From: Candidatus Woesearchaeota archaeon | GTDB lineage: Archaea; Nanobdellota; Nanobdellia; Woesearchaeales; ARS49 | Direction: 5' to 3' | Length of the DNA stretch: 64,000 bases | NCBI GenBank assembly: GCA_016215315.1 | Contig: JACRKG010000011.1 | Coordinates: 537-64,536, forward strand | Part shown: piece by piece, positions 1,753-51,770 of the stretch | Layout of the letters: each line of letters begins with the position of its first letter | Position numbering within the stretch: the first letter of the stretch is position 1 | Program-made: the position numbers and the translations under genes | The notes under the pieces: generated by a model | What the model saw: the letters and a program-made list of their open reading frames with translations, nothing else | Told to the model about the DNA's origin: nothing | Database searches by the model: none

Positions 1753-2247
1753 ATGCGAGTTTTTATTCAAAAAAAAGGTGTGTCTCCGTTAATTGCTACT
1801 TTTCTATTAGTTTTATTATCTGTAGTTCTTGGTGCTGTTGTTATGACTTTTGGTGAAGCATACATTGGAGAAAATGCAGGCTTTGCTAAAGGAGAACCAG
1901 AAGTTGGTTTAGGCTGCGAAACAATCAAGTTTGATATTACAACAATCAGAGGAGTACCTCATGTTTGCATTAAAGAAAGAACTTTAGACATTAGTCTAGA
2001 CAATAGTCCTAATACTATTATTGATGATTTCCATGCAAGAATTCATGGAAGCGAAGGAGTTAGCAATGTGCAAAATCTTCTCGACAAACCTTTAGAAAGA
2101 AACGCAGGAGTTAGATTAAGAATTCCTTATGAGTACGTTGGTAAACCATTAAAAGTAGTAATTACACCAATCAAAAAGACTGGCGGAGCTCTAGCTTATT
2201 GTACTGAAAAAAGTATTCAAATAGAAAACTTACCCGATTGCGAGTAA
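1753..2247 (+). CDS. archaeal type IV pilin-like protein (class III signal peptide)
   Basis: N-terminus MRVFIQKKG|VSPLIATFLLVLLSVVLGAVV: basic stretch, KG cleavage site, then hydrophobic helix. ATG at 1753 preferred over the GTG at 1744. Confidence 0.55.
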   Translation: MRVFIQKKGVSPLIATFLLVLLSVVLGAVVMTFGEAYIGENAGFAKGEPEVGLGCETIKFDITTIRGVPHVCIKERTLDISLDNSPNTIIDDFHARIHGSEGVSNVQNLLDKPLERNAGVRLRIPYEYVGKPLKVVITPIKKTGGALAYCTEKSIQIENLPDCE

Positions 2248-2306
2248 AAAGAAAGTATTCCTAATTTTTCGTTAGGTTTAAATATTTTCAAGAGTTAATT
2301 GTTTTT

Positions 2307-3047
2307 ATGAGAAAAAGTCTTTACATAAAATCTGCACCTTATTATGATATAGTTGTGGATTCTAAAGTTATAGCTAAAAGTGCAAAATTCATATCGAAGT
2401 TGCTTTCCAGATTTAATGTTAAATCTGTTCTCGAATTAGGTTGTGGAACTGGTTTATACTTTATTCCACTAAAGAAAGATAAATTTGATATTGAAGGATT
2501 AGATCTAAGCCAAAGTATGCTTAAAGAAGCTAGAAAGAAGAGCAAAACTATAAAATTGTATAAAAAAGACATGTCAACTTTCAAAATCAATAAGAAATAC
2601 GATGCAATAATTTGTTTAAATTCTTCATTACTTGCTCTTCCAAACTTTCAGCTTATTAAGAAGACTATCAAAAACATAAGTAAACACCTAAAAGAAGAGG
2701 GCATAATGATTTTATGTCTCCCAAATCATTCCAAAGAAATAAAGGAATCAAACAATGAAAGATCAGAAGAAACACACAAAATCACAGGAGGTATTCTAAA
2801 ATCAATCTGTTTCTCTCATAAAAAAGGAAACAAATGGATTGAAGAATGGCACGGAACTGTTAAAAAAGGAAACAAATCATACAAGTTCAAAGACGTGTTT
2901 GAAGAATTTATATTTTCTCCAAAAGAACTAGAAACTTTCCTTAAAATAACTGGTTTCGAAATACTAAAAATCTACGGTTCAAGAACAGGCGGAAATTTCA
3001 ATAACAAAAATTCATATCGTAGAGTTTACTTATGTAAAAAACAATAA
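2307..3047 (+). CDS. class I SAM-dependent methyltransferase
   Basis: VLELGCGTGLYFIPL glycine-rich SAM-binding motif I followed by acidic-residue motif II. Confidence 0.75.
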   Translation: MRKSLYIKSAPYYDIVVDSKVIAKSAKFISKLLSRFNVKSVLELGCGTGLYFIPLKKDKFDIEGLDLSQSMLKEARKKSKTIKLYKKDMSTFKINKKYDAIICLNSSLLALPNFQLIKKTIKNISKHLKEEGIMILCLPNHSKEIKESNNERSEETHKITGGILKSICFSHKKGNKWIEEWHGTVKKGNKSYKFKDVFEEFIFSPKELETFLKITGFEILKIYGSRTGGNFNNKNSYRRVYLCKKQ

Positions 3048-3087
3048 CTCACAAATTATTTATGTAGTTTAAAATTAAGGAGTTATT

Positions 3088-3324
3088 ATGCACGATTTAA
3101 ACTCGATAGGCATACCGATAAATCCAAACAAACACCCTGCTAAAAAATCACTATTTAGTGAGTTTTTTGAAGGATTGTCATTAATTTTTATTGGCACTGG
3201 AGATATAATCGGAATTATATTTTCTTTAATTCACGCAGTTATTTTTATTCTTTACTGGACATTATTTCTAATAGAAAGATTTATTTTAAGATTAAACATA
3301 GACAAACCAAAGGTTAAAAAATAA
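3088..3324 (+). CDS. hypothetical small membrane protein
   Basis: 78-aa ORF with one hydrophobic segment. No recognisable motif. Confidence 0.25.
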   Translation: MHDLNSIGIPINPNKHPAKKSLFSEFFEGLSLIFIGTGDIIGIIFSLIHAVIFILYWTLFLIERFILRLNIDKPKVKK

Positions 3325-3334
3325 TATTTTATAC

Positions 3335-3363
3335 AACTTTAAATAATCAACCAAATAAATCTA
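3335..3363. repeat. left 29-bp direct repeat flanking the TA cassette (AACTTTAAATAATCAACCAAATAAATC)
   Basis: Near-identical copy at 4035..4063 (2 mismatches), exactly 700 bp away. Confidence 0.7.
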
Positions 3364-3380
3364 TTTTTAAAAACTACTTT

Positions 3381-3716
3381 TTACTCTATCTCTATCAACA
3401 ATTTGTTATCTCCCACTTTTGATATTAAAACTTCTTCAGTTCCTTTAAGTTTAAGTTCTCGTTCTATGTCCGAAGGTATTCTTAATACTGTTCCTCTGGC
3501 GCTCTTACTTAACTTCCGATGTAATTTTAGTTGTGTTCCCCAAACACCTAGTTTTCTTGCTTGTTGAATCATTCTGTTACCTTCTTCTTCTCCAATAAAT
3601 TCTTCACTGCAAAGACCACACCTTTTTCCTTTAGCTATAAATACCACTCCATCCAAACTATTAATGACATCGTTTACTTCCATTAGTTCTCCTTTTTCAC
3701 ATTTTGGACACTTCAT
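3381..3716 (-). CDS. putative antitoxin: YgiT/MqsA-type zinc ribbon fused to SpoVT/AbrB swapped-hairpin domain
   Basis: MKCPKCEKGELME...CGLCSEEF Cys4 ribbon resembling the MqsA N-terminus. C-terminus GTVLRIPSDIERELKLKGTEEVLISKVGDNKLLIEIE is AbrB/MazE-like. Start taken at the internal ATG overlapping the toxin stop (ATGA). Confidence 0.6.
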   Translation of the reverse strand: MKCPKCEKGELMEVNDVINSLDGVVFIAKGKRCGLCSEEFIGEEEGNRMIQQARKLGVWGTQLKLHRKLSKSARGTVLRIPSDIERELKLKGTEEVLISKVGDNKLLIEIE

Positions 3717-3976
3717 TTTCTTTTTCCTCCTTCCGAACCAGTTATGCAAAACAATATATCGTCCATGAAATAATACACAGAGACTACTTTTTTGAAACCT
3801 TGTTTTTGAACATAAATTTCATATTTGTTTTTTCCGACTTTTTCTATTTTATATGCATCTCTTACTGCTTCGCGTAATTCATGAAAGTCCCAATTCCACT
3901 TATTCATATATTTAAGTGCAAAGTGTTTGCTCACATCAATCTTAACTTGATAAATGTTCCAAGGAACTTTCACCAT
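3713..3976 (-). CDS. putative toxin, DUF4258-like (toxin-first arrangement as in mqsRA)
   Basis: 87 aa. KHFALKYMNKWNWDFHELREAV resembles the H-A-x-x-R-M-x-x-R core of DUF4258. C-terminal beta-rich end VVSVYYFMDDILFCITG resembles the MqsR/DUF4258 C-terminus. 4-nt overlap with the antitoxin. Confidence 0.5.
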   Translation of the reverse strand: MVKVPWNIYQVKIDVSKHFALKYMNKWNWDFHELREAVRDAYKIEKVGKNKYEIYVQKQGFKKVVSVYYFMDDILFCITGSEGGKRK

Positions 3977-4034
3977 ATTTTCACTATCTTTTCATCATAT
4001 TTAAATCTTTCGCAAAAAAGTAAAAATTCTGTAA

Positions 4035-4063
4035 AACTTTAAATAATCAACCGAATAAATCCT
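4035..4063. repeat. right 29-bp direct repeat flanking the TA cassette (AACTTTAAATAATCAACCGAATAAATC)
   Basis: Matches 3335..3363. Confidence 0.7.
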
Positions 4064-4068
4064 TTTTT

Positions 4069-4845
4069 ATGTTACTCGAATTCGACCTTAATAAGAACGT
4101 TGCTCAGAATGCTGAAGATTATTATGCTAGAAGTAAAAAGGTGAAGAAAAAAATTGAAGGTGTCGAAAATGCTATTGCTAAGTTTAAAAAAGAGTTAGAA
4201 CAAGAGATTAAGAAAGAAGTCAAGAAAGAAGCGCACAAAGAAGTTCAGAAAATCGAGTTAGTTAAGAAATGGTATCACAAATTTAGGTGGTTTTTTAGCA
4301 GTGAAGGATTTCTTTGCATTGGCGGAAGAGATGCAACAACAAATGATATTGTTATCAAAAAACATACTGATCCAACTGACATAGTTTTTCATACAGAATC
4401 ACCAGGAAGTCCTTTTTTTGTTATAAAAAGTGAAGGAAAAAAAATAGGTGAAGCAACAATTCAAGAAACGGCTATTGCTACTGGAAGTTTTTCTAGAGCC
4501 TGGAAACAAGGAGTTACTAATACAGAAGTTTTTCATGTTAATCCTGACCAAGTAAGCAAGGAAGCTAATACTGGAGAATTTTTAACTAAGGGAGCTTTTA
4601 TGATATATGGAAAAAAAAACAATATTCAAGTCAAGCTAGAATTAGCCATAGGACTAAAAGATAATGAATTAATGTGCGGTCCCATTGAAGCAGTAAAGAA
4701 ATATTGCACTACTTACTTAATAGTAAATCAAGGCAGTCAGAAACCCAGCGATGCTGCCAAAAAGATAAAACAATCCATAAATGCAGAGTTAGACGATATA
4801 ATCCGAGTTCTTCCAGCAGGAGACATGCACGTAGAAAAAAACTGA
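4069..4845 (+). CDS. NFACT-R (DUF814) RNA-binding protein, Rqc2/FbpA C-terminal homologue
   Basis: N-terminal K/E-rich coiled coil, then FLCIGGRDATTNDIVIKKHTDPTDIVFHTESPGSPFFVIK typical of the DUF814/NFACT-R domain. Confidence 0.6.
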   Translation: MLLEFDLNKNVAQNAEDYYARSKKVKKKIEGVENAIAKFKKELEQEIKKEVKKEAHKEVQKIELVKKWYHKFRWFFSSEGFLCIGGRDATTNDIVIKKHTDPTDIVFHTESPGSPFFVIKSEGKKIGEATIQETAIATGSFSRAWKQGVTNTEVFHVNPDQVSKEANTGEFLTKGAFMIYGKKNNIQVKLELAIGLKDNELMCGPIEAVKKYCTTYLIVNQGSQKPSDAAKKIKQSINAELDDIIRVLPAGDMHVEKN

Positions 4846-4978
4846 TACCTCTAGACACAAGAAATGTGTGGTATCCATGTTGTCTTCTGGCATCAAACAT
4901 TACGGTCGTCATAGAGTTTTGCGCGAGCAAAACTCTAGAATCGCAATTTTTATAAAAAAAGGCCACTTTCGGCCATTT

Positions 4979-5446
4979 ATGAAGCAAATTTTGGAAGTTA
5001 CCAGAATAAAGCAAGAAAAAGAGGAATACAGCGGCATTGCTGCACTGTGCATGGTTTTGAATTTTTATGGAACAAAAACAGATCAAGAGGATTTAGCGTC
5101 TAATTTCTTACTTAACGGAGCTTATGATAAAGAGTTATTAAAAAGTGCTACAAGTCAAGGATTTTTTGCTTATTCGCACAAAAATGCTTCACTAGATACA
5201 ATCGTTAGTTTATTAAAACAAGGAATTCCTGCAATCGCAAAAACAAAAGGCAGTTCAAAAAAACCATTGTATTGCGTAATAACTGGTTATGATTTAGATA
5301 CAAAAGAAGTTTACTTTAACGATCCTTCAGATTTAAGAAGAACAAAACTCAATTTTGAAAATTTCCAAAAAACTTGGACTTTAGAAGACAACAAAAGAGG
5401 ATACAAGAATTTCTTAGTTAGCGTTAAACCAAAGAAGAAGAAATAA
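4979..5446 (+). CDS. C39-like papain-fold peptidase domain protein
   Basis: EYSGIAALCMVLNFYG matches the Cys motif of C39/BtrH-like peptidases. Start placed at the internal Met (MKQILE); the upstream 37 codons of the ORF-track call look non-coding. Confidence 0.45.
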   Translation: MKQILEVTRIKQEKEEYSGIAALCMVLNFYGTKTDQEDLASNFLLNGAYDKELLKSATSQGFFAYSHKNASLDTIVSLLKQGIPAIAKTKGSSKKPLYCVITGYDLDTKEVYFNDPSDLRRTKLNFENFQKTWTLEDNKRGYKNFLVSVKPKKKK

Positions 5447-15166: not shown

Positions 15167-15601
15167 ATGAAATTCATGTACGATTGGAAAGACACGAAAA
15201 AACTTTACTGGAAAGAAGATTTTCCATACTCGGGAAACTTAGCAACACTTGCTGAAACGTATTCAAAAAATTCTCTAAGACCAAAAATCAGTAAAAAGGC
15301 ATTACTCGAAAAAATGCTTGAACAAGACAAAGAATAATTCTTTTTTCTTAGTTCATCAATAATAGTTTATTTAAAGGTATTTTCTTTACAAGAGCTTTAT
15401 GCCTCATACAGAAAAGCTTTAGCAATTTATGCAGACACAAATTTTGATCGTGAAATAAGTGAAGAAGAAAAAAATGCATTTAACAAAAAAATGTATGCAG
15501 AAAACAACCTAACAATAATAGAAAAAAATAGTCCAAAACAACACTGGACTTGAAGTAACAATAGAAGACTTGTTAAAAATATTAGAAAAATACCAGAATT
15601 A
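15167..15601 (+). pseudogene. decayed tandem paralogue of the downstream gene 15607..16143 (in-frame TAA at 15335 plus a frameshift near 15525)
   Basis: 56-aa ORF, then a 71-codon open frame in the same phase after one stop. Contains [21 protein letters not shown], matching ADTNFDHNISEKEKNDFNQKM of the intact copy. C-terminal segment readable only after a frame change. Confidence 0.45.
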
Positions 15602-15606
15602 AAAAA

Positions 15607-16143
15607 ATGACATTCATACCAAAAGATCAAATCGAGGAATTTTTAACTAAACAGGAAAGTCAAGACGTAATTGAAAAAACAGAAGGTCCTAAAAATCAAC
15701 CTGAAGAAACTTCAATTTATCAAGGGAATAATAATCAAAGAAATAATCAAAGACCTGAACCTGATTTAACTGATTATACTGACAAACAAAGCGAAGACCT
15801 GCGGACATGTATGCCTGTAATTGCAGTACTTCTGGCATTCGCAGGATTTATTTACTGGGCAGAGGGGAGAAAAATAGAGAGGAATAAAAAAGAAGAAAAC
15901 AGTTTACAGGAGTACAAATATCTTTATATGAACGCTTCAAATTTACATGCGAAAGCTCTAGTATTACACGCAGACACTAACTTTGATCATAACATAAGTG
16001 AAAAAGAAAAAAACGATTTCAACCAAAAAATGTGCGGAAGAAATAACGTAACAATCATTGATGGAAAATTTATTCAAAACAGCACAGGTCTTGAATTAAC
16101 AATAGAAGAACAAATAAAAATATTAGAACAGTACCAAAACTAA
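15607..16143 (+). CDS. hypothetical single-pass membrane protein (intact copy of the duplicated family)
   Basis: Central TM helix VIAVLLAFAGFIYW. C-terminal domain homologous to the upstream relic. Confidence 0.5.
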   Translation: MTFIPKDQIEEFLTKQESQDVIEKTEGPKNQPEETSIYQGNNNQRNNQRPEPDLTDYTDKQSEDLRTCMPVIAVLLAFAGFIYWAEGRKIERNKKEENSLQEYKYLYMNASNLHAKALVLHADTNFDHNISEKEKNDFNQKMCGRNNVTIIDGKFIQNSTGLELTIEEQIKILEQYQN

Positions 16144-44206: not shown

Positions 44207-44325
44207 AATTCTTTATATGTTTTTCTAGAAAGATTTCTCAGAAAAGTGAGAAATTTTTCCAAAAAAATGAGAAAATTTCTCAAAAAATGGAAATATTTTC
44301 CAAAAAATTAGAAAAAATTTACTGA
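44207..44325. repeat. about 110-nt repeat element copy 1: TTCTTTATATG-TTTCTAGAAA plus 4-5 units of 21-nt period built on palindrome GAGAAATTTCTC
   Basis: Near-identical copy at 51671..51770 in direct orientation. Confidence 0.7.
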
Positions 44326-51670: not shown

Positions 51671-51770
51671 ATTCTTTATATGTCTTTCTAGAAAAATTTC
51701 TCAGAAAAATGAGAAATTTTTCCAAAAAATGAGAAGATTTCTCAAAAAGTTGAAAATCTTTCAATGGTTG
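51671..51770. repeat. about 110-nt repeat element copy 2 (GAGAAATTTCTC-type palindrome array)
   Basis: ATTCTTTATATGTCTTTCTAGAAAAATTTCTCAGAAAAATGAGAAATTTTTCCAAAAAATGAGAAGATTTCTCAAAAAG matches 44207..44300 at about 90%. Confidence 0.7.

Follow-up and report, generated by a model that had tools for sequence, protein, structure and literature searches.

A 64,000-nt stretch of contig JACRKG010000011.1 was analysed (referred to here as the window), belonging to the Candidatus Woesearchaeota metagenome-assembled genome (MAG) GCA_016215315.1 (DPANN; locus tags HZA97_01475/01480). It contains a small cassette of two genes, predicted to encode a toxin and its antitoxin, which is enclosed by two direct repeats immediately upstream of the gene for the ribosome-rescue protein NFACT-R (DUF814). 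The open reading frames (ORFs) of the pair overlap by 4 bp and are the only two listed between the repeats, as the original prediction from this DNA had stated. Further upstream are a short ORF for a hydrophobic protein, a methyltransferase gene that depends on S-adenosylmethionine (SAM) and the gene for a pilin-like protein (Table 1).

Table 1. Features of the toxin-antitoxin locus and its surroundings, in coordinates of the window. BRE, B recognition element.
Feature	Position	Strand	Remarks
Gene for 164-aa pilin-like protein	1753..2247	+	Named from the N-terminal motif only; ancestral upstream neighbour of NFACT-R
Methyltransferase/78-aa block	2251..3334	+	Window-specific; left of repeat copy 1, outside the repeat-bounded segment
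Class I SAM methyltransferase	2307-3047	+	Within the block 2251-3334
78-aa hydrophobic ORF	3088-3324	+	Within the block 2251-3334
Direct repeat, copy 1	3335..3369	+	Orphan NFACT-R core promoter; TATA box TTTAAATA at 3338-3345
Presumed inserted segment, 665 bp	3370..4034	-	Cassette plus non-conserved flanks 3370-3380 (~11 nt) and 4015-4034 (~20 nt)
Antitoxin gene, 111 aa	3381..3716	-	Predicted N-terminal MqsA/YgiT-type zinc ribbon and C-terminal AbrB/MazE/SpoVT-like domain
Toxin gene, 87 aa	3713..3976	-	Predicted RelE/BrnT/HigB-like fold; no Pfam family
Tandem 11-nt operator-like repeats ATGATGAAAAG/ATAGTGAAAAT	3998-3977	-	Between the TATA box and the toxin ATG at 3976
Promoter of the cassette	3977..4013	-	BRE-like GCGAAAGA at 4013-4006; TATA box TTTAAATA at 4005-3998
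Direct repeat, copy 2	4035..4069	+	Working NFACT-R core promoter; TATA box TTTAAATA at 4038-4045
NFACT-R (DUF814), resident gene	4069..4845	+	Pfam PF05670, E=1.6e-31

A pattern search of the 64 kb with AACTTTAAATAATCAACC[A/G]AATAAATC returned only two matches, both on the forward strand (3335-3361 and 4035-4061) and differing from each other at a single position, while the same 27-mer pattern had no match in 100 shuffles. The best ungapped extension covers 35 nt (3335-3369 and 4035-4069) with 32 identical positions and a longest exact run of 18 nt, and the similarity stretches to 54 nt at 81% identity in a repeat search. The repeats had been described as 29-bp units with two mismatches; they are present at 3335-3363 and 4035-4063, but the mismatches number three. 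With ungapped scoring of +1/-2 the pair reaches 26, to be compared with a median of 8, a 99th percentile of 12 and a maximum of 19 for equally spaced 200-nt segments from other parts of the window (402 pairs). The two copies are 700 bp apart, and this spacing is also found in an independent Logan assembly of the same sample (L001; SRR12113407), which differs from the window by three single-nucleotide polymorphisms over about 9.8 kb. Since both assemblies have the same two-copy structure, an assembly artefact is unlikely. The repeat is confirmed as real and is far beyond what chance would give.

The repeat coincides with the core promoter of NFACT-R. In copy 2 the TATA box is located 31 nt ahead of the A of the NFACT-R start codon, and a TATA box about 30 nt before ATG is the arrangement expected of leaderless archaeal transcripts. 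This position suggests that the NFACT-R mRNA is leaderless and, for the same reason, that the 35-nt unit takes in the entire core promoter as far as the presumed transcription start. In the window, TATA-like boxes most commonly start 30-31 nt before ATG (12 matches). A TATA-like motif was found about 25-35 nt upstream of ATG in 23 of the 113 window ORFs of at least 60 aa, and by this measure of sequence the Woesearchaeota lineage represented here may be suggested to transcribe its genes largely without leaders. A promoter consensus with leaderless architecture is thereby gained for the lineage. Individual genes with a TATA-like box about 29-31 nt before ATG are numerous, including those at 2307, 7758, 12451, 17066, 22695 and 55290, and an A-rich, BRE-like stretch precedes such boxes at many genes. 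The possibility that the repeat is a generic promoter motif was rejected on the grounds that other genes share no more than its BRE/TATA part, AAAnTTTAAATA, in their upstream regions; the 16 nt that follow it occur within the window in copies 1 and 2 alone. Copy 1 has an intact BRE/TATA region and the same spacing from the TATA box to the TA as copy 2. No gene lies downstream of it on the forward strand; it points towards the 3' end of the antitoxin gene, with a T5 tract 10 nt downstream of its predicted start site.

The closest relative found, L087 (GCA_053530895.1), has an NFACT-R that is 89% identical to that of the window, within a syntenic series of genes (M20 peptidase, GT2, 164-aa pilin-like gene, NFACT-R, C39 peptidase, 771-aa gene, Na/H exchanger). 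It harbours no toxin-antitoxin pair and a single copy of the motif (L087 3753-3778), directly upstream of NFACT-R, and aaaACTTTAAATAATCcACCAAATAAATCTctttttATG directly follows the stop codon of its pilin-like gene. By blastn, the DNA specific to the window spans 2241-4032, about 1.79 kb, and homology resumes at 4033. The promoter is thus found on both sides of a portable cassette in the window and once in the relative. An empty site with one copy of the repeat had been proposed as a check, to be sought between the methyltransferase and NFACT-R genes. The single copy without the pair is indeed there, but its left-hand neighbour is the pilin-like gene, since L087 has neither the methyltransferase nor the 78-aa ORF.

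The pilin-like gene is close upstream of NFACT-R in nine loci (L087, L089-L091, L008, L020, L021, L023 and L031), the two genes being 0-12 nt apart in five cases, 36 nt apart in L087 and 212 nt apart in L089-L091, and none of 85 other NFACT-R loci has the toxin-antitoxin pair. The arrangement in the window is therefore derived, and a deletion in L087 in place of an insertion in the window was rejected on account of the same adjacency across the Woesearchaeota. The block of methyltransferase and 78-aa ORF is lower in GC content than the window (0.275 vs 0.324). No homologue of the 78-aa ORF was present in any locus fetched, and no long duplication surrounds the block, whose junctions share only TAAAA(A), too short to interpret. 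The methyltransferase was considered as an ancestral neighbour and discarded, since the methyltransferase of L089/L090 is only 28% identical and located elsewhere in the locus. As both this block and the cassette are missing from L087, at least two insertions separate it from the window. In L007, whose NFACT-R has 73% identity, other genes occupy the gap (2414-5001) that separates NFACT-R from the pilin-like gene: a pair named by sequence reading as HEPN-like (143 aa) and nucleotidyltransferase-like (173 aa), and an EamA-like transporter. The gap thus appears to be a recurrent insertion hotspot.

That the two genes constitute a toxin-antitoxin pair had been proposed from the ORFs, and the assignment is supported by the predicted fold of the toxin and by both profile and fold of the antitoxin. 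The toxin was modelled with AlphaFold2 at a mean confidence (pLDDT) of 92, and the 26 best Foldseek matches of the model in the PDB were all toxins of the RelE/ParE superfamily, with probabilities of 0.60-1.00 and E-values from 7e-3 to 0.2; they include HigB2, HP0892, BrnT (3u97, TM 0.64/0.71), YoeB and RelE. The family alignment has K17, H18, F19, W27, R35, K51, Y52, E53, K63, G80 and G83 as invariant residues. Searches of Pfam, NCBIfam and PADLOC gave no match for the window protein, with no family at E<=0.1, and no Pfam or NCBIfam family was common to more than 4 of 25 homologues; nor did a profile search against the PDB match any toxin. The family is small, with 62 clusters at 50% identity among 1.84 billion representatives. 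The antitoxin has more than 200 homologues. Its four cysteines (C3, C6, C33 and C36) are invariant, and its profile matches the N-terminal domain of MqsA in the PDB with E=1e-4. Foldseek placed MqsA (26% identity) in the top five positions for the modelled structure, followed by weaker matches to MazE and SpoVT, and PF15731 scored 18.4 bits, short of its cut-off of 30. For residues 78-109 there is a weak match to MazE/AbrB, and the model contains beta strands; no Xre-type helix-turn-helix was detected in the C-terminal domain. On this evidence of folds and profiles a type II toxin-antitoxin system is a credible assignment, and the cassette would define an unannotated family of RelE-fold toxins with a hybrid MqsA-N/AbrB antitoxin.

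Among characterized systems, MqsR-MqsA (YgiU-YgiT) of E. coli is similar in having the toxin gene first, a toxin of the RelE-superfamily fold and an antitoxin whose N-terminal zinc domain is alike by profile and fold, and the autoregulation from operators in the system's own promoter would be shared. The C-terminal domain is AbrB/MazE-like here, in contrast to the Xre-type helix-turn-helix of MqsA. The toxin has no match to the MqsR_toxin family of Pfam, MqsR is not among its top structural matches, and the promoter is of the archaeal TATA/BRE type with a predicted leaderless mRNA. BrnT/BrnA, HigB2/HigA2 and RelE/RelB include the best structural matches of the 87-aa protein and resemble the present pair in size and in the two-gene operon. 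The identity to these toxins is only 11-21%, however, and the antitoxin is of another type.

More than 40 homologous loci keep the order of TATA box, ATAGTGAAAA-type repeats and ATG ahead of the toxin gene, and across these the conservation ends about 8-10 nt upstream of the TATA box. The cassette is accordingly a self-contained transcription unit, its own conserved promoter preceding the toxin gene. The repeats are likely operators for the AbrB-type antitoxin. Diverged members of the family have a palindromic variant, TGATTATCA, of the 11-nt repeats (consensus ATAGTGAAAA).

The cassette recurs in other DPANN genomes as a unit of 86 and 111 aa with the conserved promoter, in at least eight unrelated housekeeping contexts. 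Its neighbours there include mannose-phosphate isomerase and an M24 peptidase, RpiB and a metallophosphoesterase, a PEP-utilising enzyme and L37ae, Nop and fibrillarin, a radical SAM protein, Lon and a ligase-like ORF. A scan for flanking repeats within 200 nt on each side could be scored for 39 loci, about 33 of them non-redundant. The window scored 26 and one further locus, L125, scored 15; all others remained at 11 or below, which is background. Flanking repeats as a general feature of the cassette were consequently rejected, about 31 other non-redundant loci having none and L125, with its 15 bp, being the sole companion of the window.

In L125 a diverged member of the cassette family is abutted at both ends by a perfect 15-bp direct repeat, GAAATGCAGGGGAAA, at 132-146 and 797-811. 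The final codons of a ligase-like ORF are supplied by the left copy, and this ORF now terminates as ...EMQGKA* with the stop inside the cassette TATA box, whereas from the right copy the reading frame runs on to the original stop (...EMQGKN*). L125 thus shows a second, independent insertion with a 15-bp target duplication. A further candidate was a difference in a PemK-toxin gene pair between L002 and L003, which had no flanking repeat and so did not provide a third example. The contigs of these two loci are 96% identical and both encode the same cassette toxin; L003 has about 650 bp (4701-5349) where L002 has 62 bp (5009-5070).

The inserted segments of the window and L125 share no termini. 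A repeat search found no inverted repeat pairing the ends of the insert, and neither this mark of a transposon or miniature inverted-repeat transposable element nor the other, a short target duplication of fixed length, is seen here, the duplications being 35 and 15 bp long. Candidate terminal inverted repeats were discarded, the only match being the 8-nt TTTTTACT, without significance in AT-rich DNA. Neither a tRNA or Rfam element as a target nor a viral contig encoding the toxin was found. Pfam annotation of the region between about 4 kb upstream and 5.7 kb downstream of NFACT-R revealed no integrase or other mobility gene, and over this range the original statement that no integrase is nearby holds. 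The 35-bp repeat is absent from the other copies of the cassette.

Taken together, we consider it probable, at roughly two chances in three, that the toxin-antitoxin cassette was inserted at the NFACT-R core promoter with a 35-bp duplication of its target by a recombinase-independent capture. A small mobile addiction cassette and an insertion that duplicated its target had both been envisaged for this locus; the latter option is the correct one because the repeat is the resident NFACT-R core promoter and not a recombination site specific to the cassette. Independence from a recombinase is indicated by the difference in duplication length between the two events, by termini that are neither shared nor inverted, and by the lack of a recombinase or tRNA at the site. 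The cassette would have entered at the resident promoter in inverted orientation, as about 665 bp including short foreign flanks, and the duplication would span the TATA region to the first base of the NFACT-R start codon. Copy 2 would still drive leaderless transcription of NFACT-R, and copy 1 would be left as a scar beyond the antitoxin stop codon. A linear DNA fragment may have been captured by illegitimate recombination at a staggered break or replication intermediate, where fill-in at the staggered ends would yield duplications of variable length. Insertions that duplicate the start or stop signals of a gene leave this neighbour functional and may therefore survive. Once in place, the pair would act as an addiction module in which the zinc domain of the antitoxin neutralises an RNase-like toxin and the AbrB-like domain represses the operon at the ATAGTGAAAA repeats between TATA box and start site. 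Selection would then act against cells in which the repeats recombine and the cassette is lost.

Several observations speak against this interpretation. L087 is a different species with 80-87% DNA identity, and it also lacks the adjacent methyltransferase/78-aa block of 1.08 kb, so that it does not provide a clean plus/minus comparison for the cassette. Flanking duplications occur in only 2 of about 33 non-redundant cassette loci, for which reason a duplication may not be the usual outcome of insertion. No donor locus was found: the window has a single occurrence of the 21-nt flank that lies within the insert, and the closest toxin homologue, P0002 (77% identical), has unrelated flanks. Finally, the working copy 2 differs from the L087 motif at 4 of 35 positions, while the presumed scar, copy 1, differs at only 2 of 35. 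Although these counts are small, the divergence would be explained no less well if copy 2 had been imported from another allele than by a duplication in place.

Capture with target duplication is known from bacterial restriction-modification systems as insertion with long target duplication (2000, Gene 259:99; Furuta, Abe & Kobayashi 2010, NAR 38:2428, PMC2853133). Published cases were defined by three features: a repeat of more than 30 bp, the lack of mobility genes and a related genome in which the site is empty. Their repeats frequently extend over a translation start or stop, and none of the cases that passed the screen was archaeal (PMC2853133); a later review assigns this mode to restriction-modification systems only (PMC3874152). 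The present locus is similar in that a small addiction-type unit without a mobility gene is bounded by direct repeats of more than 30 bp, the 35 nt being barely above that threshold. The repeat is a host sequence present as a single copy at the empty site of the relative L087, no mobile-element gene was annotated from about 4 kb before NFACT-R to 5.7 kb after it, and the repeat occurs just twice in 64 kb. The repeat also spans the start signals of NFACT-R here and a stop codon in L125, the gene remaining intact, and the duplication varies in length between events. In contrast to the published cases, the cargo is a type II toxin-antitoxin system and the host a DPANN archaeon, the duplications of 35 and 15 bp are shorter than the 46 to about 400 bp reported, and the genome with the empty site is of another species that differs by a second nearby insertion. 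A resemblance exists also to integron cassettes such as the toxin-antitoxin cassettes of the Vibrio superintegron, which are likewise small, at about 0.6-0.7 kb, and lie between directly oriented repeats. Those repeats are attC sites borne by the element and recombined by IntI, whereas the repeat here is host sequence, with no attC-like palindrome and no integrase, and the cassette has its own promoter.

The divergence of the two copies would also be accounted for by recombination between population variants, through homology-facilitated illegitimate recombination or unequal crossing-over with a donor allele in which the cassette was located upstream of its own NFACT-R promoter. A homologous junction within NFACT-R and an illegitimate one just downstream of the recipient promoter would give the observed order of recipient promoter, cassette and donor promoter. 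The three differences between the copies could then be allelic, in accordance with copy 1 being nearer to L087 than copy 2, and the site appears to be a recurrent hotspot, as seen in L007. The bases to the left of copy 2, TTCTGTAAAA, also resemble the end of the pilin-like gene in L087, TTCTTAAAAAA, more than that in the window, GCGAGTAAAAA, but this resemblance is a 4-mer in AT-rich DNA. The donor allele is moreover hypothetical, with the cassette in 0 of 85 NFACT-R loci, and the duplication at the unrelated site in L125 is left unexplained. We regard such an exchange as unlikely.

A broader view would be that this narrow, DPANN-specific toxin-antitoxin family is a minimal autonomous mobile unit of about 650 bp, which inserts repeatedly and without a recombinase at gene boundaries, leaving long duplications of variable length. 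The AbrB-type protein might assist in the process, and the orphan promoter might be co-opted as an antisense regulator. This is a doubtful proposition at present. If true, the mobility mode of restriction-modification systems would apply to toxin-antitoxin systems and in archaea as well, and a minimal element would be at hand in which this mode is tractable to study.

Direct repeats around an insert and a single copy at the empty site would likewise be expected if a circular cassette had integrated at an att-like site of 27-35 nt, by site-specific or Campbell-type recombination with a recombinase supplied in trans. The repeat, however, is a host promoter missing from the other copies of the cassette, L125 has a different 15-mer, and the cassette ends are not conserved beyond the 8-10 nt upstream of the TATA box; in addition, neither an integrase near NFACT-R nor a tRNA target nor a viral carrier was found. 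Integration of this kind is improbable. Equally slight are the chances that copy 1 is a functional duplicate under selection, serving as an antisense promoter that tunes the toxin-antitoxin operon or as a terminator between convergent genes, with its link to the insertion being secondary. Its preserved promoter elements should by sequence still recruit TBP and TFB, and it is directed at the 3' end of the antitoxin gene, but the T5 tract follows shortly after the predicted start site, no relative has copy 1, so that conservation cannot be shown, and the equivalent leftover in L125 is a fragment of coding sequence without promoter features. Chance similarity or an artefact of MAG assembly is hardly credible even in AT-rich DNA (32% GC) where TATA boxes are common to promoters, given the lack of any match in the shuffles, a score above the empirical maximum, two concordant assemblies and an exact run of 18 nt that is shorter than the usual assembly k-mers.

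Toxin-antitoxin pairs are widely called mobile, and the footprint of a bare cassette entering a chromosome without a carrier is rare. With capture and target duplication as the preferred reading, the locus shows the filled site, the empty site of a relative, the precise extent of the duplicated target (a complete archaeal core promoter) and a second, independent insertion of the same family flanked by a duplication. Insertion with long target duplication would thereby gain an example whose cargo is a type II toxin-antitoxin cassette and whose host is a DPANN archaeon with a reduced genome. The footprint in the window is clean, but not unprecedented. The locus also offers a test case for whether duplicated promoters left by insertions stay active.

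Two further sets of repeats were observed in the window. A direct repeat of 79 nt with 78% identity is found at 15524-15602 and 16065-16143, of which the second copy constitutes the 3' end of an ORF at 15607-16143. The first copy ends in TAA just before the start of this ORF and has no long ORF over it; it may represent what is left of a tandem paralogue. Tandem repeats of about 20 nt (AAAAATGAGAAAWTTT...) form two clusters, at 44242-44318 and 51705-51761, 7.4 kb apart.

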